A DNA stretch of 64,000 bases, taken from the IMG/VR virus record IMGVR_UViG_3300050120_000237, positions 1,836 through 65,835 of that record. One strand, written 5' to 3'. Within the stretch, counting starts at the first letter, position 1. Every line of letters begins with the position of its first letter. This document shows, in pieces, positions 4,442-62,692 of this stretch. Under the pieces are notes generated by a model. That model saw nothing but the letters and a program-made list of their open reading frames with translations. It was not told where the DNA came from and made no database searches. A program made the position numbers and the translations under genes. Source of the DNA: a virus. Taxonomy: Duplodnaviria; Caudoviricetes.

Positions 4442-4809
4442 AGGTGTTCCCAGTCGAAGCTGCGCACCGTGTGGACGCCGGGTTTGAAATTCACCAGCGG
4501 CTTGCCGCGCGCAATGAAATGGTCGGCTTCCACCTGCATGCCATAGCTGCGTTCCCAGCCGTCGGCTTGGTACATGATAAGCCCACGCGCCGCTTCCATC
4601 AGCGGCTCGTCGTCGGGCAGCCAAAGATTGTGGTCCAGCGGGTCCAAGTTGCATTCCACCGCGACCGGGTGGCTGTGCACGATGGGCGAAAACACCGACA
4701 GGCCGGCCTGCAAGAAATACCCGCGCGCGCGCACCGCCATCCAGTAAGCCGCTTCGATGCCTTCCGCATATTTGGAATACGGCGTGGCGAGATACCAAAA
4801 GCCCTTCAT
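4438..4809 (-). CDS. DUF1937 family protein (nucleoside deoxyribosyltransferase-like fold)
   Basis: YLATPYS, VFSPIVHSH, GWERSYGM..E motifs. Confidence 0.8.
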   Translation of the reverse strand: MKGFWYLATPYSKYAEGIEAAYWMAVRARGYFLQAGLSVFSPIVHSHPVAVECNLDPLDHNLWLPDDEPLMEAARGLIMYQADGWERSYGMQVEADHFIARGKPLVNFKPGVHTVRSFDWEHL

Positions 4810-6074
4810 GCTTCGGCCTTTTTCTTTTTGGCCAAGCGTTCGGCCTTGATTTCCTCGAACGTGCGCCCGTCACCGTCCAGCGTGGCTTTCAGCCCGGTGT
4901 GCAATTCCCAGCGCCCGACCGTGACGTCGGTATATCCCGGCGTAAGTTCGCTGCCGAAATAGGTCCGGTCGGTAAGTTCGCAGGCCAGCATGGTGGATCC
5001 CGAACCGTTGAACGGGTCGCACACCGTCTTGGCCATGTCGGTTACCTCGATAACCTTCACCAGCAATTCCACCGGCTTTTCCGTGGCGTGGTTTATGTTG
5101 CCGCTGCGCTTGCACCTGATCACGTTGCCCTGCGCCTTTTTGGGGTCGAAAGGCGACTTCACCGCGATGCCGCACATAATCAGTTCGTGCTGCATGCGCC
5201 AGCCGGCGCCCATGCCGGGGGTTTCCTTGTCCCACACGATCATGTTGCGCACGCCATAGCCGCTGCTTTCGATCACGTCGAACAGGGTCAGCCACATGCG
5301 CCAGTCGGTGAAGGCATAGACGACGCCAGCGCCGATGGTGGGAATAACGGATTTCATCAGCGCGCTATAGCCGCGCGACGACAGGGTATCGTTGGCGACC
5401 ATTTCGCTGCCGCGCGTGCCGACGCTGCCGGCACCTTTGCCTGCTTCCTGAAAGCCGCCGCTGCAATACGGCGGGTCGGTCAGCACCATGTCGATGCCGG
5501 TGCCGTTGAACAGCTTGGCCATGCTTGCCTGGTCTGAACTGTCGCCGCAAATCAGGCGGTGACGGCCCAGCAGCCACAGGTCGCCGCGCTTGGAAATCGG
5601 GTTCTTGGGGATTTGCTGCGCCGGCTCGGGAAGGCGGCGGGTGTCTTCCTCTTTCACGAAGCCCTGCACCTGCAGGTCGCCAAGTTCGCCAAGGTCGAAA
5701 CCAAGGCTGCCAAGGTCGATGCCGCTGTTGTGCAGTTCGCCCAGTTCGGCGCGCAGCAGTTCTTCGTTCCAGCCGGCATTCAGCGCAATGCGATTGTCGG
5801 CAATCGCCAGCTTGCGCCACTGTTCAGCGGATAGGCCCACCTTGGTGATGGTGTGTATCTCTGACCAGCCCAGCAGCAGCACCGCAGCGAGTCTGCCGTT
5901 GCCGACCCGCACCGTGTCGGTGGCGTCCAGCAGGATTGGGCCTGTCAAACCGCTTTCGGCGATCGAGGCGCGCAGCTGTTCGACCTGTTCTGGCGAATGC
6001 GTGCGCATGTTCTTGGGGTCGGGTTTGAGGTCTGCCGGGTTGCGGTAGACGATTTCTAGACGGTCGGCGGTCAT
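4806..6074 (-). CDS. ParB-like N-terminal domain fused to N6/N4 DNA methyltransferase
   Basis: LKPDPKNMRTH...GNGRLAA...IADNR (ParB); HRLICGDS, TDPPY, HATEKP, DPFNGSGST (beta-class MTase). Confidence 0.9.
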   Translation of the reverse strand: MTADRLEIVYRNPADLKPDPKNMRTHSPEQVEQLRASIAESGLTGPILLDATDTVRVGNGRLAAVLLLGWSEIHTITKVGLSAEQWRKLAIADNRIALNAGWNEELLRAELGELHNSGIDLGSLGFDLGELGDLQVQGFVKEEDTRRLPEPAQQIPKNPISKRGDLWLLGRHRLICGDSSDQASMAKLFNGTGIDMVLTDPPYCSGGFQEAGKGAGSVGTRGSEMVANDTLSSRGYSALMKSVIPTIGAGVVYAFTDWRMWLTLFDVIESSGYGVRNMIVWDKETPGMGAGWRMQHELIMCGIAVKSPFDPKKAQGNVIRCKRSGNINHATEKPVELLVKVIEVTDMAKTVCDPFNGSGSTMLACELTDRTYFGSELTPGYTDVTVGRWELHTGLKATLDGDGRTFEEIKAERLAKKKKAEA

Positions 6075-6268
6075 TTGCTTTTCTCGGAATGGTGCCCGGG
6101 TGTGCCGCTCGGGCAATCGGACAGGGTGGTGAAAGGGTCGATGCAGGAACCGCAGCCGGAAAGGCCCAGAAGAACCAGCAGCGCGATGGACAGCCGGCGC
6201 CACAGCGGCGGCTTGGGCGGTTTTGAGAACATGCGCAGGGTCTGCTGCCCAAATTCTAACTCGGTCAT
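6071..6268 (-). CDS. Putative small lipoprotein
   Basis: Basic residues, hydrophobic stretch and lipobox LSGC. Confidence 0.55.
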   Translation of the reverse strand: MTELEFGQQTLRMFSKPPKPPLWRRLSIALLVLLGLSGCGSCIDPFTTLSDCPSGTPGHHSEKSK

Positions 6269-6270
6269 GT

Positions 6271-6669
6271 TCAAGGCTCCGAAGGAAAGTCGCCGAACTC
6301 GTAACCGTCCAGCTTGATGAAAACATGCCAGCCGCAGCCGGCTGCAAAGCGCTTGCCGGACTCGCCCATGGCCGCGAGGGTTTCGGCGGTGGCGTCGAAG
6401 AAAGAGGCGGTGACGCGACCGTCGGCATGGACATGGTGCAACCCAATGCCAGTCCAAACGCCGCAGATGCAGCGAATGTTTGGCTTGAGGTGCTTTTCTG
6501 TTCCGTATTCGGAAACACCAATCCAGCCCGGCCCGGCAGAAAACGGGGTGTCGTGCGTGATGCGGGGAATAAGCACCGGGTCGTCTGGGCTGCATCGGTT
6601 TATGTCCCGGCCCAGCAGGTCCACCATTGGTGCGGCAGCAAGAGCGGCGGCGCGGCGTTCGTCGATCAT
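6271..6669 (-). CDS. Cys/His protein, distant DUF6527-like
   Basis: CICG...H..DGRVTASF...CGWHVFI pattern. Confidence 0.55.
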   Translation of the reverse strand: MIDERRAAALAAAPMVDLLGRDINRCSPDDPVLIPRITHDTPFSAGPGWIGVSEYGTEKHLKPNIRCICGVWTGIGLHHVHADGRVTASFFDATAETLAAMGESGKRFAAGCGWHVFIKLDGYEFGDFPSEP

Positions 6670-26120: not shown

Positions 26121-26192
26121 GCCATATCCCACGGTTTTTGGGGTGTCAACAAAGTTGATTTTGTTGACAGCCCACACGACGCACCCTATTTT
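26121..26192. promoter_or_regulatory. Back-to-back divergent sigma70 promoters
   Basis: Minus: TTGACA-17-TATGGC; plus: TTGACA-17-TATTTT; perfect inverted repeat TGTCAACAAA-N6-TTTGTTGACA (26144-26169). Confidence 0.75.
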
Positions 26193-28952: not shown

Positions 28953-29924
28953 ATGCCAGACATTGATAAAAAGACGATAAGCGCCACGCAGGTGCCGGCA
29001 CTCTTTGACGCCAGCCCCTACCTGACCAAGTTCATGCTGTACCGCTGGTTCAAGTATGGCGACGAAGTGCACGGCAAAGAACACAACCGCATGGATTGGG
29101 GCACCCGCATGGAGCCCCTTTGTCTCGCGCAAGCTGCGGAAGACCTGTTCTTCGAAGTGATCCCAACGCGCTTGCCCGATGGCACACAGCCCTATGTGCG
29201 CAACGGCCTGCTGGGCTGCACGCGCGATGCGGCGATCATATGCCCAGACCGTGGACCAGGCGCTTTGGAAACCAAAGTTTGCTTCGACAGTATGTCGTGG
29301 ATGCGCGACTGGAACGGCGGCAAGTCTGTGCCGCGCCACATTGAAATACAGCTGCAAATGCAGATGAAAGTCGGCGACGGGGTGACCTCATACAAGTGGG
29401 GCGTCATTTCGGTGTGGTATGGCGGCGAACAGAAATACTTTGAACGCAAGCCGATGCTGGACCTGTGGGCGGCAGCCGACGCAGAAGCCGCCCAGTTCTT
29501 TGCGGACTTGGAAGCCGGCAAAGAACCAGACCCGTTTGGCGCGTCGATAGAGGCACCGCTTATCGCGCACGTCTTCCCGCCGGACGACGCCAAGGTGCTG
29601 GACCTGTCCAAGTTGGAACGCGGCAAAGCAGAACACGCCACGGCGCTGGCCATCGCAGAAGACGTGCGCATGATGGCTTACCACAGCGGCGAACGGCTGG
29701 GCCACGCGCGGGCAGAAAAGGAATTGAAAGCCAAGCTGCTGGCCATCGCAAAGGACAACGGCACGGTGCTGCTGCCCTATGGCATCAATTACAAAGTGAA
29801 GCAGTCGCCGCGCGCGGGCTTCATTGCCAAGCCGACCGTGGCCACTTCGGTGGACCCCTACGTTCCGCAAGACGTGCCGGAAGGCGACCTGACGCAGTTT
29901 TATAACGCAGACCTTGGAGGTTAA
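28953..29924 (+). CDS. YqaJ-like viral recombinase exonuclease
   Basis: ISATQVPAL..SPY.T, WGTRMEP, GCTRD, LETK, P.H..IQLQ.Q. Confidence 0.85.
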   Translation: MPDIDKKTISATQVPALFDASPYLTKFMLYRWFKYGDEVHGKEHNRMDWGTRMEPLCLAQAAEDLFFEVIPTRLPDGTQPYVRNGLLGCTRDAAIICPDRGPGALETKVCFDSMSWMRDWNGGKSVPRHIEIQLQMQMKVGDGVTSYKWGVISVWYGGEQKYFERKPMLDLWAAADAEAAQFFADLEAGKEPDPFGASIEAPLIAHVFPPDDAKVLDLSKLERGKAEHATALAIAEDVRMMAYHSGERLGHARAEKELKAKLLAIAKDNGTVLLPYGINYKVKQSPRAGFIAKPTVATSVDPYVPQDVPEGDLTQFYNADLGG

Positions 29925-29926
29925 GA

Positions 29927-30892
29927 GTGGCCAGCAGCGAACTTGTGATTTTTGAAAACCAGCTAAAGCCGCTTACCCGGCAGTTCGAAGACGTTCTGGC
30001 AGACCGCATGCCGGCGGAACGGCTGATGCGCACGCTGTTTATGGCGTGCGAGAAAACCCCCAAGCTGTTGGATTGCAACCGGCAGTCGCTGATTAACTGC
30101 GGCATGACCTTTGCGGTGCTGGCGCTGGAAACCGACGGCGTGACCGGGCAGGGATACATTCTGCCGTTCAAGCAGCAGGCCCAGCCGGTGGTTGGGTACA
30201 AAGGCTACAACACCATCGGCGCGCGCTCGCGCCTGACCATCACCGGGCAGGTGGTGCGCGAGGGCGACGAGTTCGATTTCCAAATGGGCACCAAGGCGTT
30301 TGTGCACCACAAGCCAGCCTTGGACGATAGCGGCAGGATCATTGCCGCTTGGGCACAGGCCGAAGCCTTCGACCGGCCGCCCATCATTGAAGTGCTGGGC
30401 CTCAAAGCATTGATGGCCGTCAAGGCGAAGTCGCCCGGCGCGCGCATGTCGGACAGCCCTTGGAACGACCCGGCCATTGGCCTGCCTGCGATGTTCGGCA
30501 AGACGGCAAAGCGCCGCCTTGCGCGGTCCACCCCGATGGAATGGGCGCGGCCGGAATTTCAGCAGGCGGCGGCGCTCGACGAAGCGTTCGAGGAAAGGGG
30601 CATGCTGTCCCAGCTTTCGCCCACCAAGGGCCTGATGCTGGAAGGCGTGCCGTCGCCCATCACAAAGCGCGAACCGGGCGAAACCCCGACGATGGACGAC
30701 ATAACGGGCCCCAAGCCGGACCCGGAACTGGAAGAACTGAAAGCCACGGGCAACGAAGCAGCGCAGGGCGGCGAACATGCGCTGGTGTCGTGGTGGAAGT
30801 CATTGACGCCACGCCAGATGCGGATTCCCGGGCTGGACGAATACAAAAACACCACCTTGAAGCCGCTCGCGGTCGAAGCCGACAAAAACTAG
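29927..30892 (+). CDS. recT: RecT-family single-strand annealing protein
   Basis: PKLLDCNRQSL, GYILPF, VGYKG, VREGDEF, MFGKTAKRRL; adjacent to YqaJ. Confidence 0.88.
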   Translation: MASSELVIFENQLKPLTRQFEDVLADRMPAERLMRTLFMACEKTPKLLDCNRQSLINCGMTFAVLALETDGVTGQGYILPFKQQAQPVVGYKGYNTIGARSRLTITGQVVREGDEFDFQMGTKAFVHHKPALDDSGRIIAAWAQAEAFDRPPIIEVLGLKALMAVKAKSPGARMSDSPWNDPAIGLPAMFGKTAKRRLARSTPMEWARPEFQQAAALDEAFEERGMLSQLSPTKGLMLEGVPSPITKREPGETPTMDDITGPKPDPELEELKATGNEAAQGGEHALVSWWKSLTPRQMRIPGLDEYKNTTLKPLAVEADKN

Positions 30893-30919: not shown

Positions 30920-32497
30920 ATGCGCGTTCTGAAATTACTTTCCGAAAACATAAAGCGGATTAGCGTGGTCCAAATCACGCCCGAGGGAAACCTTGTGCAA
31001 ATCACCGGCAAGAATGAGGAAGGCAAGTCGTCGGTGCTGGACTCCATATTCATGCTGCTGGGCGGCGCCGACGCCATCCCCGAAATGCCCATCCGCAAGG
31101 GCCACAAGACTGCGCGCATTGAAGGCACGCTGGGCGGCGACGATGGTGTGCACTATATCGCCACCCGCAGCTTCACCGAAAAGGGCAGCTATCTAAAGGT
31201 CGTTGGCGCTGATGGTGCGAAATACGGCAGCCCAGACAAACTGCTGAAAGACCTCATGGGCTCAATTGGCTTCGACCCCATCAGCTTTATGAAATTGAAG
31301 CCCAAGGACAAGTTCGACACGCTGCGCAAGGTCGTGGTGCTGAAAGACAAAGGCGGCAACGATATCGACTTGGCAGCCCTCGCGCGCCGCCGGCAGACCG
31401 CCTTTGACGACCGCACCACCATCAACCGCGACCTTTCCAGCGCCAAGGCGCGCGCCGACGCCATCGTGGTGCCCGATGATCTGCCCGACGAAGAACCCGA
31501 CCGGCAGGCCATCGTGGTGCGTTTGAGCGGTGTCAGCGAACACAACACCGCCATCGCGCGCCTGGTCCGCAACCGCGAAGACGCGGCAAAGACCGTGGTC
31601 GAATGGGAACGTGAAGTGGAAGAACGCAAGGCAGCGCTGAAAGAGGCGCAAGAGGAAATGGACCACGCCACAGAAAAGCTGGCGCACTGGGTGGAAAACA
31701 AGGCCACGGTGGACGCGGTGGAAATCCCAGACCAGCAAGACCCCGCCGCGATCACCGCCGAACTGGCGGCTGCCGACGAAATCGCCGAAGGCTTCCGCTT
31801 GCAGGCGTCTAAAATCACCGTGCTGGCGGAAGTCGATAAGCACCAGCGCCTTTCCGACGAACACACCAAGGCCATCGAGGCAATCGACCAGACCAAGGAA
31901 GCGGCCCTGAAAACCGCAGCCATGCCGATTGAAGGGCTGGCGTTCGCCGACGACCTATTGCTGTTCAACGGCATCCCGCTGGAACAGGCCAACGCCGCCA
32001 CGCAGCTGCGTGTCTCTGCCGCCATCGCCGCCGCCTTGAACCCCAAGCTGCGCGTGATCCTGTGCCGCGACGGGTCGCTGCTGGACAGCAAAAGCCTTGC
32101 CGCGCTGGCCCAGTTTGCCGAGGAAAAGGACATGCAGATTTGGCTGGAACGGGTTGACGAAAGCGGCGAGGTCGGTTTCGTCATGGAAGACGGCCACGTT
32201 AAGGGGCAGGAAGACTTGGTGGCGTCGCATGCCGAAGCCGAAGCCAACGCCCCGGCCACCGGCAGCGACCCCACGGCTGGGGTCACCATGGACCCGGGCG
32301 GCGAAAAGGAAGTGCGCGCCCGCAAGTATCTGGCGTCGATGCTTGCCGCCCTTCCGAAGCAGACCACCGTCGAACAGTTGGAGGTCGGAAACGCGCAGGT
32401 GAAAGTAAAGCTGTCTGGATTCCCGAACCTCATTCAACAGGAATGGGCGCCGTCTTATCTGTCGGCGTTGAAGGCCCTGACCGGGAAGAAGCACTGA
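30920..32497 (+). CDS. Rad50/SMC-like ATPase with coiled coil
   Basis: ENIKRI, ITGKNEEGKSSVLD Walker A, central coiled coil, RVILCRDGSLLD. Confidence 0.85.
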   Translation: MRVLKLLSENIKRISVVQITPEGNLVQITGKNEEGKSSVLDSIFMLLGGADAIPEMPIRKGHKTARIEGTLGGDDGVHYIATRSFTEKGSYLKVVGADGAKYGSPDKLLKDLMGSIGFDPISFMKLKPKDKFDTLRKVVVLKDKGGNDIDLAALARRRQTAFDDRTTINRDLSSAKARADAIVVPDDLPDEEPDRQAIVVRLSGVSEHNTAIARLVRNREDAAKTVVEWEREVEERKAALKEAQEEMDHATEKLAHWVENKATVDAVEIPDQQDPAAITAELAAADEIAEGFRLQASKITVLAEVDKHQRLSDEHTKAIEAIDQTKEAALKTAAMPIEGLAFADDLLLFNGIPLEQANAATQLRVSAAIAAALNPKLRVILCRDGSLLDSKSLAALAQFAEEKDMQIWLERVDESGEVGFVMEDGHVKGQEDLVASHAEAEANAPATGSDPTAGVTMDPGGEKEVRARKYLASMLAALPKQTTVEQLEVGNAQVKVKLSGFPNLIQQEWAPSYLSALKALTGKKH

Positions 32498-32637
32498 TGG
32501 CCAAGGCCATCCCATTGCAGTTGGCCACGGCGTTAATCGTGGCCTCCTATCTGTCAAACCACAAACTGTCCGCGCGGAAGGTGGACCGGCTGATTTTGTC
32601 GGTTCACGCCGCGCTGGCGGAAATCGGGAAGAAATGA
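32497..32637 (+). CDS. MucR/Ros N-terminal domain-only protein (46 aa)
   Basis: LIVASYLSNHKL....VDRLILSVHAAL matches MucR IVSAYVSNN......LI.SVH.AL; no zinc finger. Confidence 0.75.
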   Translation: MAKAIPLQLATALIVASYLSNHKLSARKVDRLILSVHAALAEIGKK

Positions 32638-33047
32638 ACACCGCCATCACATGCCCGTATTGCTCCCGGCCTGCCGCTTTGGTGACCGGCAAGGTGATTT
32701 ATCCGCACCGCAAAGACCTGCACGAAAAAACCTTCTGGGCCTGCATGCCCTGCAAGGCGTGGGTGGGCTGCCATCCCGGCACCGACGTGGCGCTGGGCAG
32801 GCTGGCGAACGAAGAACTGCGCAACGCCAAGCGCGCGGCCCACGCGGCGTTCGACCCGCTGTGGCAGCCGGAAGTGCAGACCGGCAGCAAGAACAAGCGG
32901 CGCAAGATGCGCGACGCCGCTTATGACGCGCTGGCGCGGGTGCTGAATATCCCGCGCGAGGAATGCCACATTGGCATGTTCGACTTGGACCGCTGCACGC
33001 GCACGGTCGAAGCCTGCAAGACCCTGAAACTAGGAACCAAAGGATAG
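32634..33047 (+). CDS. DUF3268-type zinc-finger protein
   Basis: CPYC, C..C.AWVGCH, LGRLAN.ELR, FDPLW, CHIGMFD. Confidence 0.85.
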   Translation: MNTAITCPYCSRPAALVTGKVIYPHRKDLHEKTFWACMPCKAWVGCHPGTDVALGRLANEELRNAKRAAHAAFDPLWQPEVQTGSKNKRRKMRDAAYDALARVLNIPREECHIGMFDLDRCTRTVEACKTLKLGTKG

Positions 33048-33756: not shown

Positions 33757-34374
33757 ATGTTTAAATATGCCGTCTTTGATACCGAAACGTCCGGCCTGTT
33801 CGACTTTAAGTTGGCTGCCGACCACGAAACGCAGCCCCGCATGTGTTCTTTCGCCATGGCTTTTCTGAACGCCAACCTTGAAGTGGAAAACCACTACAGC
33901 GCGTTGGTGAAGCCGGACGGCTGGGCGCTCGACGACAATTGCGAGGCAGCCCAAAAGAACGGCCTCACGCAAGCGCGCCTGATGGCAGAAGGCGTGCCGG
34001 TCAGGGAAATTCTGGACATGTATAACGCCGCGCTGAATGACGGCCTTATCATGGTGGGGTTCAACGTGTCGTTTGACCTCAAGATGATGCGGGCAGAACT
34101 GCGTCGGGCCGGCCTGCCCGACCGCTTCGACACCACCGCGTCGGTCGATTGCATGCGGCCCCTGACCAATATCTGCAAAATCAAAAAGGCCAGCGGTGGC
34201 GGCTTCAAGTGGCCGAAACTGACGGAAGCCCACCAGTTCCTGTTTGGCGAAGGCTTCGAAGGCGCGCACGGCGCGCTGCCCGACACCCTCGCTGCCGCCC
34301 GTGTGTTCAAGCACATGGTGGCCAACAAGATGCTTTCCGAACAGGCCCTGACCGGCGTGCAGGAAATGCGCTGA
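33757..34374 (+). CDS. DEDDh 3'-5' exonuclease (DnaQ-like)
   Basis: FDTETSGL, GFNVSFD, KWPKL.EA, AHGALPD. Confidence 0.9.
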   Translation: MFKYAVFDTETSGLFDFKLAADHETQPRMCSFAMAFLNANLEVENHYSALVKPDGWALDDNCEAAQKNGLTQARLMAEGVPVREILDMYNAALNDGLIMVGFNVSFDLKMMRAELRRAGLPDRFDTTASVDCMRPLTNICKIKKASGGGFKWPKLTEAHQFLFGEGFEGAHGALPDTLAAARVFKHMVANKMLSEQALTGVQEMR

Positions 34375-34859
34375 TGCTGGGAAAACTCACACCCCCGTGG
34401 CGCTGGCAGACTTTCGGCGACCTGCTGATGCTGGTTACCGATGCTGGCGGCTCCCGCGTCGTGCTTGCCGGCAGCCGGCAGGACGGCACGCTGATGGTCT
34501 GCGATGATACAGGGCGGCTGGTGCCTCTTAAACCGGACCACCCCATCGCGGCTTTCATTGTGGAAGCGTGCAACGGCTGGACGATGGCCAAGCTAACGGC
34601 ATCTGAATATGCCAAGGCCGTTGCGGCATGCGCGATGTTCCAGTCTGGCGGTCGGTGGTCCAGCTTAATGACGGTCAGCGAAAGGACCACCAGCGACGGG
34701 CCAAAGGCGCTTTCGGATTATGCCGAAAAGCTGGAACGCACGCTGGTGGAATTGCTCAAGCAGGTGGACGACCGGGCCGGGCCCGGCGGGCTGGTGGGCA
34801 ACACCCCGCTGTGCCGTGCTGCCGACGACGCCCGCAAGCTGCTACTGGGCGAAGAATGA
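34374..34859 (+). CDS. Hypothetical protein
   Basis: TPPWRW...HPIAAFIVEACN motif. Confidence 0.6.
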   Translation: MLGKLTPPWRWQTFGDLLMLVTDAGGSRVVLAGSRQDGTLMVCDDTGRLVPLKPDHPIAAFIVEACNGWTMAKLTASEYAKAVAACAMFQSGGRWSSLMTVSERTTSDGPKALSDYAEKLERTLVELLKQVDDRAGPGGLVGNTPLCRAADDARKLLLGEE

Positions 34860-35065
34860 AAGCCAAGCCCACACACCGCGCCATCACCAACGCAAAGCTG
34901 GCGGTGCTGCGGGAAGCAAAGGCCCGCATTGGGCGCATTCCATCACTTCGGTTTCCGACCAGGCGGCTGGACGAAGCGGCATGCGCCCAGAACGGCATGA
35001 ACTACAGGGCACGCAAGGTGCTGCTGGAAATGATCGAAGAACTAGAGCGGGGAACGAAGCAGTGA
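34856..35065 (+). CDS. Small basic protein
   Basis: Coupled at both ends. Confidence 0.5.
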   Translation: MKAKPTHRAITNAKLAVLREAKARIGRIPSLRFPTRRLDEAACAQNGMNYRARKVLLEMIEELERGTKQ

Positions 35066-36771
35066 ACAAATCCATGGTGCTGGGCACCACCAGCTTGAAG
35101 CAGGAAATCACCTTGGACGTGGAAGCCCTAATCGGCTCCCACCTGCTTATTCAGGCCAATGCCGGCGGTGGCAAAAGCCGGACCATTCGCAAGATTATGG
35201 AGATTGCGGACGGGAAGGCGCAGCGCATAATTCTGGACGTGGAAGACGAATTCCACACCCTGCGCGAAATCTCCCCGGGCATGGTGGTGCTGGGCCCCGA
35301 GGGCGACGCGCCCGCCAATCTGGCAAACGCCGCGATGCTGCCGAACTTCCTTCTGGAAACCGGGCTGGATGCGGTGTTGCAAATAAACCAGCTTGGCCTT
35401 GAAGGGCGGCGCGAGTTTATCGCCCGGTTCCTTCACGCCCTCATAGGCGCCCCACGGCACCTGTGGCACCCGGCGCTGGTGGTGCTGGACGAAACCCACC
35501 GCTATGCCCCGCAGGCCGGCAAGGAAGTCAGCAGCGACCCCGTGGCGGCGCTGGCATCGGAAGGGCGCAAGCGTGGGTTCACCGCCATATTTGCCACCCA
35601 GCGCATGGCAAAAATCGACAAGGACGCCACTGGTGACGTGAATAACTGGCTGATGGGACGCGCCGGGCAATCCACCGACCGCGACCGCTGCGCCGACGAA
35701 CTGGGCCTGAAAAAGACCAGCCCGGAAATGCGCGCGCTGGGAAAGCTGAACCCCGGTAACTTCTGGGTGATCGGCCCGGCCCTGACAGCCGAAGCCACGC
35801 TGGTGCACGTCGGCAATGTCCAATCCACCCACCTGCGCAGCGGTCAGCGCGGCGTGCCGGTGCCGCCCGGCGACAAGGCCCTCAAAGCCATGATGGCCAA
35901 GCTGCATGTGGAAGAACCGAAGCCGGCGCCGGCCACGTCACTTTCTGCCCCCACGAACGTGACCCCGGAAAGTTACGCGGCGTCCAAGGACGACCTCGCG
36001 GCAGAATACCGGCGCGGCTATGGCGAAGGCGACGCGGCGGGTTTTTCGCGCGCGGTCGCCATCATCGAAACAAACCGAGCCGGGGCGTTGCGCGCGTTGG
36101 CAGCCCAGCAGAGCAACGCCACCGCCGCCCTAGAATACATGCAGGACTTGACCATAGACCTGCAGAACGCCGCGCCGGCATCCCTGCCGGCGCCTGCGCC
36201 CAAGATTGCCCCCGTGGCGGAAGGGAATACGCGCCCGGTTTTAAAGCCGAATGGTGGGAGTGCTGGTTCAAGTCCAGCCGGGGGCACCAAGCAGCCTGTG
36301 GAACAGCGCGTGTTGAACGCTCTTGCGGAATTGGAGGCGATGAAAGTCACCGCCCCCACCCGTGAAATCGTGGCTTTCATGTGCGATTATTCCAACACCA
36401 CCAGCACCGGCTTTGCCCGCGCCATGGCGGCGCTGAACAAGGACGGGCTTGTTTCCGCCGGTGGTGGGCAGCTTATGCTGACCGATGCCGGCAGGCGCCG
36501 GGCGCAGCCCCCGCCCAAACGCACCCCGACAGAACTTCGCGCCAGGATCGTCGAAATGATCGGTGGAAAGGCCGGGCAGGTCATGGGCGCGTTGGTGAAA
36601 TCCTATCCGCAGGCCGTCACGCGCGAGGCATTGGCGGCGGCCGCTGGATACACCAACACCACCAGCACGGGATTTGCGCAGGCGATGGCGAAGCTGTCGG
36701 CGCTCAATTTCGTGGAATATCCAGAAAAGGGGCAGGTTGTCGCCGCGCGCCTTCTGTTTCAGGGGGCATAG
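35062..36771 (+). CDS. HerA/DUF87-like ATPase with two C-terminal winged-helix repeats
   Basis: ANAGGGKS, ILDVEDEF, VVLDETH..APQ, GRKRG, ATQR; duplicated Y.NTTSTGFA.AMA.L. Confidence 0.85.
   Translation: MNKSMVLGTTSLKQEITLDVEALIGSHLLIQANAGGGKSRTIRKIMEIADGKAQRIILDVEDEFHTLREISPGMVVLGPEGDAPANLANAAMLPNFLLETGLDAVLQINQLGLEGRREFIARFLHALIGAPRHLWHPALVVLDETHRYAPQAGKEVSSDPVAALASEGRKRGFTAIFATQRMAKIDKDATGDVNNWLMGRAGQSTDRDRCADELGLKKTSPEMRALGKLNPGNFWVIGPALTAEATLVHVGNVQSTHLRSGQRGVPVPPGDKALKAMMAKLHVEEPKPAPATSLSAPTNVTPESYAASKDDLAAEYRRGYGEGDAAGFSRAVAIIETNRAGALRALAAQQSNATAALEYMQDLTIDLQNAAPASLPAPAPKIAPVAEGNTRPVLKPNGGSAGSSPAGGTKQPVEQRVLNALAELEAMKVTAPTREIVAFMCDYSNTTSTGFARAMAALNKDGLVSAGGGQLMLTDAGRRRAQPPPKRTPTELRARIVEMIGGKAGQVMGALVKSYPQAVTREALAAAAGYTNTTSTGFAQAMAKLSALNFVEYPEKGQVVAARLLFQGA
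36208..36289 (+). tRNA. tRNA-Leu-like element with degenerate anticodon arm, nested in frame in the HerA-like CDS
   Basis: Acceptor GCCCCCG/CGGGGGC plus ACCA, T-arm GCTGG-TTCAAGT-CCAGC, D-arm GCG/CGC with GG. Confidence 0.65.
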
Positions 36772-60043: not shown

Positions 60044-61315
60044 TTAGTTGGCGGTGGCCAATTCCGCCTTGTACTTGGCGACCAGCGCCGCATTCTCGCG
60101 GGCCTTATAGACGCGCGAGAAAGCCTGCTCGTTGGACAGCGTGGGCTGCGACTTTTTCAGTTCGTCGCGCTTGGCCATCAGTTCGGCAGTGGCGCTGCCG
60201 GCGGTCTTGTCGCCCTGCTTGCCGAACTCGCTGAACACACCGCCCGCATCGGCCTGCGCCTTGAGGGCCTTGTATTCCTTCAGCAGCGCGTCGCGTGCTT
60301 CCGGGGCAGAGCCCTGCATGGCTTTGCGCAGCGTGGGGGCAAATTCCTTGGCGAAGCCATTGGCGGCGGCAAGGTCTTCGTATTCCTTCACGATGCGGTC
60401 TTCGCGGCCCTTTTCGATTTCCGCGCGGTCGCCGCGGCGGCCGTCGTCCATCGACTTGAGAATGGAGAAGGTGTCGGCGCCGACCTTGGACTTATAGACG
60501 ACCTGCGAACCATCCAGCGTGCGGAAGGCTTCGCCCGAGGAAATCGCCTTTTCCACGTCGTTGGGATTGGGGTCGTCCTTGGGGTCGTCCTTCATTTTCT
60601 TGTCGCGCGCGGTCGCGTCGGCCTTCTGAAAGTCGGCGATTTCCGCCGGGTCTTTCATCTTGGCGAGATACGCAACCTGCGCATCGGACATGGGCGCAAC
60701 CAGGCCCTTGGCAACGCCATCGCGGGTTTCCAAAGCCTTGAGCATTTCGGCTTCGGTGGCGGTGGTGGGAAGGCCCAGCGCCTTTTTCAGTGCATCGGAC
60801 ATGAGGTTTTCTCCGTTGCGGGCGCTGCCCGCGAATGTGGCCGCAATGCCTGCGACCAAGGCTTTGCCAACATTATTGGGCAGGATTTCCCCAATGTAGT
60901 CGGCGAACTCTTTCAGGCTCTGTTCAACCATGCCGGCCTTGTCCGTCACGGTGTCGTCTTTGACGATGGAAGACAGCGAGTCCTGCAAGGCGCAGGTGCC
61001 CTTGTAATAGGCGTCCCAGAACTGCTGCGTGAGTTTTTCCGCGCCCAGCACAGCGTCGAAAAGCTGCGCGCCATCGGCGTCGTTGTCGGTCAGGCCCAGC
61101 CCGCTTTTCTCGATCGCCTCGAACAGCGACTTGCGCAGCACGGTGCCCTGCGTGGTGTCGGCCTTCACAACGGGCGTGCCGTTTTCGGACCAGACCTGCA
61201 AGGCTTTGACGACCGGGCGGCTTTTCATAATCGCCGCCACCGCGTGTTCCTGACACGGGAAATCGACCGCAGCGATTTTGTTGACCACAAGGCCATGAAT
61301 GATGCGCTTAGGCAT
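60044..61315 (-). CDS. Putative scaffold protein
   Basis: IAAVDFPCQEHA N-terminus, LGLP.TATEAE, charged helical tail; upstream of capsid genes. Confidence 0.65.
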   Translation of the reverse strand: MPKRIIHGLVVNKIAAVDFPCQEHAVAAIMKSRPVVKALQVWSENGTPVVKADTTQGTVLRKSLFEAIEKSGLGLTDNDADGAQLFDAVLGAEKLTQQFWDAYYKGTCALQDSLSSIVKDDTVTDKAGMVEQSLKEFADYIGEILPNNVGKALVAGIAATFAGSARNGENLMSDALKKALGLPTTATEAEMLKALETRDGVAKGLVAPMSDAQVAYLAKMKDPAEIADFQKADATARDKKMKDDPKDDPNPNDVEKAISSGEAFRTLDGSQVVYKSKVGADTFSILKSMDDGRRGDRAEIEKGREDRIVKEYEDLAAANGFAKEFAPTLRKAMQGSAPEARDALLKEYKALKAQADAGGVFSEFGKQGDKTAGSATAELMAKRDELKKSQPTLSNEQAFSRVYKARENAALVAKYKAELATAN

Positions 61316-62243
61316 GTGTCTCGCTCCCTCCGGGCATACGCCAGCCCTCGATTGAAAAGCCCGTCAGGGTGCCGTCGGCGAACTTTGCCAGCGTGTCCTT
61401 GCAGGGTTTGTACCCGACCATCAGGCCGGTGGTGTCGCACTCGATGCCCATTGCCTTGGCAATATCGGCGGTCAGCGGGAAAATGAACGGATAGGTGCCA
61501 ACGTCGGGACCGTCGTGCTGGATATTGCCGGCGCGGTCCTTGGACAATGCGAAGCCCAGACCGCAATCAAACATCGCCTTTTCGGTGATGTGTTCCGGCA
61601 CCAGCTTGCCCTTGTGTTCGCCGTGGTGGTCCACATTCCAGTCGTAGTAATCGGCACCGGCTTTCTTGGACACGATGGCCCAGCCGAACACCACGCCCGC
61701 CGTTTCGTCCACCTTGCAGACCTTGAACTGTTCGGTGGTGGACTCGCGCGCCTTCAAGGCGTTGGACACTTCGGTGAGGTCCAGCAGCTTTACCGGGCTG
61801 CTTTCCTTGCCGTCCATCCAATCTGCCGCAAGGCGGTGGTGGCCGTCGGCGATGTAGTGCTTGTCGTTGTGGCGAATGACCACCGGGCGCTTGGCGCTGG
61901 TCAGGTCTTTGCCGCGCATGGCTTCGACCTTGGCCGGGTCCACACGGTCCTGCATGGCGTGCAGGTCTGACAGCTTCACGTCCGCATCCGGCAGGTTCTT
62001 GCTGTCGGTCAGGGCGCCGAAAAAGCGCGGAACCTGATCAGGTCGCAGGCTGCCCAGCGAATTGACGTCATATAGGAATGGCGTCTTGGCCGTCTTTTCG
62101 TCATGCGGGTGCAGGTTGCGCTTCGCCACGGGCGTCTGCCCGATGAAAGCGCGGAAAGACTTCCCGCCCTTTTTGTCTTTGTCGTCCGCCGTGGGCACAT
62201 GGACCGCCGAAGGCGACAGCTGCTTGAAGGTCTGGGCGGTCAT
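61308..62243 (-). CDS. ParB/Srx-like domain fused to XkdF-like prohead protease domain
   Basis: LHAMQDRV, PVVIR...YIADGHHRLAA; KVDE...VFGWA, H, TGLMVG, TGFSIEG. Confidence 0.75.
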   Translation of the reverse strand: MTAQTFKQLSPSAVHVPTADDKDKKGGKSFRAFIGQTPVAKRNLHPHDEKTAKTPFLYDVNSLGSLRPDQVPRFFGALTDSKNLPDADVKLSDLHAMQDRVDPAKVEAMRGKDLTSAKRPVVIRHNDKHYIADGHHRLAADWMDGKESSPVKLLDLTEVSNALKARESTTEQFKVCKVDETAGVVFGWAIVSKKAGADYYDWNVDHHGEHKGKLVPEHITEKAMFDCGLGFALSKDRAGNIQHDGPDVGTYPFIFPLTADIAKAMGIECDTTGLMVGYKPCKDTLAKFADGTLTGFSIEGWRMPGGSETHA

Positions 62244-62692
62244 TATTCGATAACCGACGCGCCAATCTTGCCGGTGACAGCGGCAGAACCGCCGACCACA
62301 CCCACCGAAACACGCCAAGTGCGCGGCAGCGGGGAATTTGCCGACAGGTTGGTGGTGACCGCAGCAGCCGGGTAAACCACCAGCGGGGTGGTGCCGACGC
62401 CGGTCAGGCCGGCCGAAGCCAGCAGCGTGTAATACTTGCCGGACACCGCGTCCTTGCCCTGAATGGTCACGGTGACCGTGGCGGTGGTGACCGTGGTCAG
62501 GTCCACCACGACCACAACGCCGCGCCCGGTGCAGTTGATCTGGTCTGCCGAATTGAGCGTGGCCGCACCCTGCGCGGTCATGGTCAGCAGGCCGAGGTCG
62601 CGGTTCTGGATTTCGCAGTTCTGCGCTGCGGCCGGCGTGGCAATGAACAGCGCCAGCAGGGCCAGAAGCGGTGCGGCTTTCATCAGGCGCAT
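62243..62692 (-). CDS. Signal-peptide-bearing beta-rich protein in head module
   Basis: MRLMKAAPLLALLALFIATPAAA-Q; VTIQGKD..SG.YY.LL, PLPRTWRV. Confidence 0.65.
   Translation of the reverse strand: MRLMKAAPLLALLALFIATPAAAQNCEIQNRDLGLLTMTAQGAATLNSADQINCTGRGVVVVVDLTTVTTATVTVTIQGKDAVSGKYYTLLASAGLTGVGTTPLVVYPAAAVTTNLSANSPLPRTWRVSVGVVGGSAAVTGKIGASVIE

Follow-up and report, generated by a model that had tools for sequence, protein, structure and literature searches.

The window analysed here is a stretch of 64,000 nucleotides (bases 1836–65835) of the 65,835-bp virus record IMGVR_UViG_3300050120_000237, which CheckV rates as complete. Between an SbcC-like ATPase gene and a gene for a DUF3268 zinc-ribbon protein lies a 46-codon open reading frame (ORF), here called P0001, whose predicted product corresponds to the N-terminal oligomerisation domain (NTD) of the silencer MucR and to no other part of that protein. 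The A of its ATG start (32497–32499) doubles as the final base of the TGA stop of the ATPase gene (32495–32497), and its own TGA stop (32635–32637) is overlapped by the ATG (32634–32636) of the DUF3268 gene. The coordinates and the coupling at both ends (TGATG and ATGA) are exactly as claimed in the original prediction, which had been made from the sequence alone, and the placement in an early-type operon also stands: P0001 sits inside recombination and replication genes of the phage, in a co-directional plus-strand block that runs from ~26.2 kb to 41 kb. GC content at third codon positions is 0.79 in P0001 and 0.77 and 0.83 in the neighbouring genes. An alternative in-frame ATG at 32443 would give a 64-residue form (32443–32637) overlapping the 3′ end of the ATPase gene by 55 nt; the start at 32497 is the likelier one because of the coupling and a ribosome-binding-like site (Table 1).

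Relationship of P0001 to the MucR N-terminal domain

MucR governs symbiosis, virulence, cell-cycle and surface genes across the alphaproteobacteria and silences AT-rich foreign DNA. The proposal that P0001 matches the N-terminal signature of this protein is borne out by profile searches. The Pfam model ROS_MUCR (PF05443) aligns residues 10–45 of P0001 with profile positions 5–40 of 123 (E-value 1.2e-4, 22.6 bits), and this is the only ROS_MUCR match in the whole 65,835-bp record. The score is below the Pfam gathering cut-off of 25.4 (reading through the stop codon gives 23.2), as is expected of a sequence to which no more than a third of the model can be aligned. With a hidden Markov model (HMM) built from 79 NTDs, taken from a source set of 80 MucR loci of named bacterial genomes, P0001 scores 32.2 bits; the best of 2000 shuffles of its sequence, 1866 of which gave any score, reaches 10.6.

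Pairwise searches give the same assignment. BLASTP aligns P0001 in register with the MucR protein (gp61) of Erythrobacter phage vB_EliS_R6L, with 42% identity over 31 residues and an E-value of 4e-6. A tblastn search of 72,556 plasmids (E ≤ 10) matched 29 records, 26 of them in alignments beginning at query residue 11 or 12; 22 of the matches lie under MucR or transcriptional-regulator annotations, six have no listed gene, and one falls in an unrelated gene. The neighbours of P0001 in the ESM Atlas are ROS_MUCR clusters (score 0.87, a lead only). No family was found for P0001 in PHROGs or NCBIfam, and phmmer against the PDB sequences returned a chance-level match only (AtzG, E-value 0.93). Identity in the core is at most 19 of 35 residues (54%) to any of 124 sampled loci, and the closest NTDs belong to full-length MucRs (165–170 residues) on conjugative Gluconobacter plasmids. 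The closest sampled relatives, each with 19 of 35 core residues, are the MucRs of a Gluconobacter oxydans H24 plasmid (locus L095) and of a G. thailandicus plasmid; the former, like P0001, is without the conserved proline of the NTD loop.

A short protein that scores below the gathering cut-off, and for which phmmer over 1.8 billion representatives finds only itself, might owe its likeness to MucR to chance or to convergence on an amphipathic helical hairpin. We regard this as scarcely credible in view of the gap between 32.2 bits and the 10.6 or less of the shuffles, and of tblastn matches nearly all of which fall, in one and the same register, on the N-termini of MucRs; the language-model neighbours, a lead only, point the same way. 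Judged by its sequence, P0001 is a true homologue of the MucR NTD.

The properties that make this domain an oligomerisation module have been mapped in S. fredii MucR1. The minimal self-associating fragment consists of residues 17–47, with a signature of I, V or L at positions 20, 21, 25, 30, 35, 39, 42 and 46 and Y or H at 24; Gly or Asn substitutions at signature positions abolish association, the spacers of the 35–46 stretch are intolerant of insertions and deletions, and MucR1 depends on the self-association of its NTD for DNA bridging, for silencing and for its own stability (PMC9410896). P0001 aligns with 43 NTDs without a gap over all 46 residues, spans the full minimal fragment and ends five residues beyond it. 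The signature is kept at nine of nine positions with exact spacing (I14, V15, Y18, L19, L24, V29, I33, V36 and L40; offset −6).

With an alignment of 39 rows as input, AlphaFold2 predicts a two-helix hairpin with helices at residues 7–21 and 26–41 and a predicted local distance difference test (pLDDT) value of 92. This agrees with the cryo-electron microscopy structures of Brucella MucR and of Ml5, in which the NTD is described as two antiparallel helices packed by hydrophobic contacts; the NTDs build rings or horseshoes of 9–14 protomers, and the isolated NTD forms rings as well (PMC11662661). Foldseek with the P0001 model against the PDB returned nothing at E ≤ 0.001. A complex prediction of P0001 with the NTD of the most similar eligible MucR (L099, residues 1–60) scored 0.02, a value obtained without controls that speaks neither for nor against binding. 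Charge sets P0001 apart from the family: its net value is +5, whereas the 43 NTDs range from −7 to +1 (mean −3.9).

Absence of the DNA-binding part and the survey for similar genes

A DNA-binding zinc-finger-type domain with basic regions is a trait of the ROS/MucR family, and P0001, which ends at residue 46, has none. An HMM of the linker and zinc-finger part of 79 MucRs, run unfiltered at E ≤ 100, found no match in any of the window's six reading frames. When the same frames are searched with the NTD HMM, the sole match is at 32527–32643, and the downstream DUF3268 protein has no ROS_MUCR match at E ≤ 1. The ORF thus ends before the zinc finger, as the original prediction had it, and the downstream zinc-finger remnants that it had named as the mark of a recent nonsense or frameshift mutation are absent. 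P0001 is not a recent truncation of a MucR; the loss of the 3′ part is old, because no linker or zinc-finger remnant remains.

A split MucR, made up of P0001 and the DUF3268 zinc ribbon, was considered and rejected: DUF3268 is a different family and occurs without P0001 in phages of unrelated hosts. Among viral contigs, one MucR gene (L120:1159–1446) is frameshifted after the NTD and followed by an out-of-frame linker and finger tail, for which a sequencing error or a pseudogene are possible explanations.

Other NTD-only genes were sought in phages, bacterial genomes and protein collections, and the phage survey suggested by the original prediction turned up none within the scope set out below. 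In GenBank phages, tblastn with P0001 gave no match at E ≤ 1, and with the R6L MucR as query it gave six phage records, all with C-terminal sequence. The IMG/VR viral contigs yielded 25 loci with a confirmed NTD, of which 24 are full length, one is frameshifted (L120) and none is a clean NTD-only gene; the scan patterns used on these contigs would not match P0001 itself and are blind to NTD-only genes as diverged as it is. Several of the phage-borne full-length MucRs (L002:30903–31301, L109, L111, L112, L119, L122 and L125) lack the cysteine that would be the first zinc ligand and read I[SI][LF]xDG... where others have CLEDG...; they appear to be zinc-less variants or variants with altered coordination.

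The NTD profile matched 288 of 401 alphaproteobacterial genomes (two of the matched genomes, G243 and G043, are unpublished) with 454 matches; among the best 150 of these, no open frame is shorter than 126 codons. With P0001 alone as query, six of 151 genomes were matched, all in frames of at least 133 codons. Against proteins of 25–84 residues the profile gave 350 matches; 24 short proteins were inspected from the best 120 of them, with longer contigs chosen, and all 24 extend into the linker or finger, in frame or frameshifted. From their sequences, these 24 are partial or broken full-length genes. Many entries of 50–84 residues that pass as MucR (P0010–P0108) come from Sphingomonadales MucR genes that are broken by a frameshift or cut off at a contig end, even where the contig exceeds 100 kb. 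On these comparisons P0001 is a lineage-specific singleton.

This status leaves room for the view that P0001 is what remains, without function, of a full-length phage MucR, open by chance and tolerated for preserving translational coupling. Full-length MucRs are common in phages (24 of the 25 viral-contig loci and the six GenBank records), and in R6L one of them lies in a similar neighbourhood, ~2 kb upstream of a DUF3268 homologue; for a singleton, moreover, a test of selection is impossible. We nevertheless consider a leftover unlikely. The loss of the C-terminal part is old, yet all nine signature residues and their spacing have been kept at an identity of 54% or less, both gene junctions are exact overlaps, and L120 and the short database proteins, unlike P0001, still carry linker or finger sequence.

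Gene neighbourhood and host

The features of the locus and its surroundings are listed in Table 1. The record encodes a major head protein, tail proteins, RecET and two DNA methyltransferases. The promoter match at the opening of the plus-strand block rests on consensus only, and the sign of the AT skew flips near 26 kb, at the same strand switch. Two proteins without an assigned family are encoded between the DUF3268 gene and the DnaQ-like gene.

Table 1. Features in and around the P0001 locus (window coordinates).
Feature	Position	Strand	Basis or context
Sigma-70-like promoter match, TTGACA-17-TATTTT	26164–26192	+	Consensus match only; at the strand switch opening the plus-strand block
RecE-like exonuclease gene	28953–29924	+	Co-directional block of P0001
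RecT-like annealing protein gene	29927–30892	+	Co-directional block of P0001
ATPase gene, 525 aa, AAA_23/SbcC-like, phrog_1499; directly upstream of P0001	30920–32497	+	Family matches
Shine-Dalgarno-like purine-rich GGGAAGAAG, 5 nt 5′ of the P0001 ATG	32483–32491	+	Read from sequence
TGATG overlap, ATPase stop and P0001 start	32495–32499	+	Read from sequence
P0001 ORF, 46 aa, MucR NTD only (predicted)	32497–32637	+	Homology and fold prediction
ATGA overlap, DUF3268-gene start and P0001 stop	32634–32637	+	Read from sequence
DUF3268 zinc-ribbon protein gene, 137 aa, phrog_1934; directly downstream of P0001	32634–33047	+	Pfam E-value 1.7e-32
DnaQ-like 3′-5′ exonuclease gene	33757–34374	+	Co-directional block of P0001

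Several further observations concern these genes. The phrog_1499 ATPase has a C-terminal extension of ~94 residues (~432–525; window 32200–32497) without counterpart in its homologues; matches to it in the phage records listed, and in the proteins of Caulobacter phage Sansa and of R6L, stop near residue 427–431. In R6L (L002, 30903–33612) a DNA methylase gene and the DUF3268 homologue both follow downstream of the full-length MucR gene, and the homologue is 41% identical to the protein encoded at 32634–33047 of the window, a loose echo of the adjacency of P0001 and DUF3268. The two DNA methyltransferase genes of the window lie at 4806–6521 and 61308–62318, both on the minus strand; the former is a fusion with a ParB-like N-terminal domain (phrog_498/620). 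ARAGORN reports a tRNA-like element with an undefined two-base anticodon at 36208–36289, within a long ORF (34720–36771); the call is probably false.

Relatives of the locus were sought by several routes. Megablast of the 28–38 kb region against phages found no relative, a search for the ATPase in viral contigs gave no match, and neither did a search for the capsid protein in genome contigs. No P0001-like ORF was found in Sansa. A profile of the ATPase identified 80 loci in metagenome contigs, with best-segment identities of 22–69% and full-length matches of at most 41%.

These data bear on the view that P0001 has no business with host MucR, and self-assembles into a small basic ring or bundle that binds DNA or RNA or acts as a scaffold partner of the neighbouring recombination and replication proteins. 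The isolated MucR NTD does form rings on its own (PMC11662661). A multimer of a protein as basic as P0001 (+5) could bind nucleic acid, and its gene, within a RecE/RecT block, is flanked by those for an SbcC-like ATPase and a zinc-ribbon protein. Like charges should, however, disfavour homo-oligomers; a P0001-like ORF is present in none of the 80 metagenome ATPase loci and is missing from Sansa, so that it is no conserved component of that module; and DUF3268 is found without P0001 in phages of non-alphaproteobacterial hosts. On balance we judge independent self-assembly to be rather unlikely.

The host was approached through the capsid, tail and ATPase proteins and through nucleotide similarity, all of which lead to phages of mixed hosts, both alphaproteobacterial (Caulobacter, Brevundimonas, Roseobacter, Rhizobium and Erythrobacter) and others (Pseudomonas, Acinetobacter and Arthrobacter). 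Six of the 79 ORFs match the first 50 kb of Erythrobacter phage R6L. The closeness of P0001 to the MucRs of Gluconobacter plasmids and the 61% GC content of the phage are no more than hints as to its host.

A candidate poison subunit of host MucR

The reading we prefer, to which we give about an even chance, is that P0001 would be an anti-silencer, a dominant-negative "poison subunit" directed against the MucR of the host. P0001 is a free-standing MucR self-association domain, presumably expressed together with the recombination and replication genes of the phage. In an alphaproteobacterial host it could insert into the ring- or horseshoe-shaped MucR oligomers through the shared domain, and the mixed particles would have fewer DNA-binding arms because P0001 brings neither linker nor DNA-binding domain. 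Multivalent binding, DNA bridging and possibly the stability of MucR would then fall, and MucR-silenced genes of host or phage would be derepressed. The reversed charge (+5 against acidic NTDs), a matter of composition, may make mixed assembly more favourable than self-assembly. Instead of relief of silencing of its own DNA, the phage might gain a reprogrammed MucR regulon in the host.

We place this reading first because laboratory truncations of MucR and RosR are dominant-negative. In Caulobacter, the product of mucR1::Tn5 is a MucR1 truncated at its C-terminus; it acts trans-dominantly on MucR2, pulls MucR2 down and lowers the occupancy of MucR2 at PpilA (PMC4083442). In R. leguminosarum, a truncated rosR has a negative-dominant effect, which the same paper also cites for rosAR without its 3′ end (PMC2996380). 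These alleles share with P0001 both the family and the principle of an N-terminal part that dominates over intact paralogues. They are artificial host alleles that retain the linker, whereas P0001 is natural, diverged and stand-alone, cut after helix 2 and inverted in charge.

The analogy drawn in the original prediction, to H-NST, is a sound one. H-NST proteins are truncated H-NS paralogues of E. coli genomic islands and, according to reports cited in PMC7710501 and PMC13707967, act as antagonists of the resident silencer; P0001 resembles them in being a horizontally carried silencer oligomerisation domain without a DNA-binding domain, here on a mobile element represented by a complete 65.8-kb virus record. 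It differs in that its silencer family and fold are unrelated, that it is phage-borne rather than carried on an island, that it is shorter (46 residues), and that its anti-silencing activity is that of a candidate only.

Other known systems are further removed. Full-length MucRs of phages and plasmids, such as R6L gp61, have a homologous NTD and are likewise found on mobile elements in early-type gene blocks, but in them (24 of 25 viral loci) the linker and the zinc-finger-type domain that P0001 is without are still present, and they would act as silencers or DNA competitors rather than as DNA-blind subunits. MucR2 of S. fredii, a frameshifted paralogue, does not bind DNA and yet associates with MucR1 through its NTD; it is nearly full length (its frameshift falls at residue 114), belongs to the host or to a plasmid, and is presented as non-functional in DNA binding, not as an antagonist (PMC9410896). 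T7 gp5.5 and other phage inhibitors of H-NS-like silencers are, by the titles cited in PMC7710501, early phage proteins directed against the oligomerisation region of a silencer; gp5.5 is not homologous to its target and acts on a different silencer family, whereas P0001 is a copy of its presumed target's own domain. In its presumed function P0001 is closest to H-NST and the laboratory truncations of MucR1 and RosR; by descent it is an NTD-only derivative of the ROS/MucR family that lacks the DNA-binding domain defining that family.

A number of observations weigh against the poison-subunit reading. No AT-rich islands stand out in the phage genome (over 200 bp, GC content falls to 0.49 at the lowest, against a mean of 0.61), and because of this MucR silencing of its own DNA is not evident. 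The mixed hosts of the phages related through other genes do not single out an alphaproteobacterial host. P0001 has Ser at the equivalent of A23 of MucR1, where the substitution A23S weakened self-association in a yeast two-hybrid assay (PMC9410896), and it lacks the loop proline found in most NTDs. It has no relative among 5.8 billion clustered proteins searched by word index at similar and longer lengths, phmmer over 1.84 billion representatives returns P0001 itself only, and the 80 metagenome loci with a homologous ATPase (331 kb) hold no NTD-like or finger-like segment. Finally, 46 open codons could persist by chance, and purifying selection is not measurable because P0001 is a singleton.

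A related view is that P0001 binds MucR without anti-silencing, and instead retunes or redirects the oligomers of a host, plasmid or prophage MucR paralogue. Its aim could be a change in surface or receptor genes that leads to superinfection exclusion, or action against competing mobile elements. The structural argument is the same as for a poison subunit, a genome may hold between 1 and 45 MucR copies, whose NTDs mediate hetero-association (PMC9410896), and the closest NTDs are on conjugative Gluconobacter plasmids. Such retuning would differ from the poison-subunit reading solely in biological pay-off, and we think it decidedly improbable.

Full-text literature searches, which cover journals outside subscription, found no natural or phage-encoded NTD-only MucR and no anti-MucR protein, in keeping with the original prediction, whose author knew of no described counter-silencer of this kind. 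Under truncated derivatives, a 2020 review enters "Unknown" for MucR and H-NST for H-NS (PMC7710501), and the atypical MucR2 and MucR3 of S. meliloti are treated as DNA-binding proteins in a 2026 paper (PMC13297338).

To our knowledge, counter-silencing of MucR has so far been seen through DNA-binding activators only. P0001, though a single sequence, is by its solid homology a clear candidate for something else. The fuller proposal, which we hold with somewhat less than even confidence, is that it would be the first natural MucR antagonist: a ring-forming domain copied by a phage, with the arm removed and the charge inverted, that may co-assemble preferentially with MucR and dismantle silencing early in infection. 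If P0001 is a natural poison subunit, the H-NST principle would extend to a fourth, unrelated family of silencers, phages would be shown to target MucR, and a 46-residue genetic tool would be at hand with which MucR oligomerisation could be switched off in laboratory rhizobia or Caulobacter. The inversion of charge suggests a testable design rule in which hetero-assembly is favoured over self-assembly.

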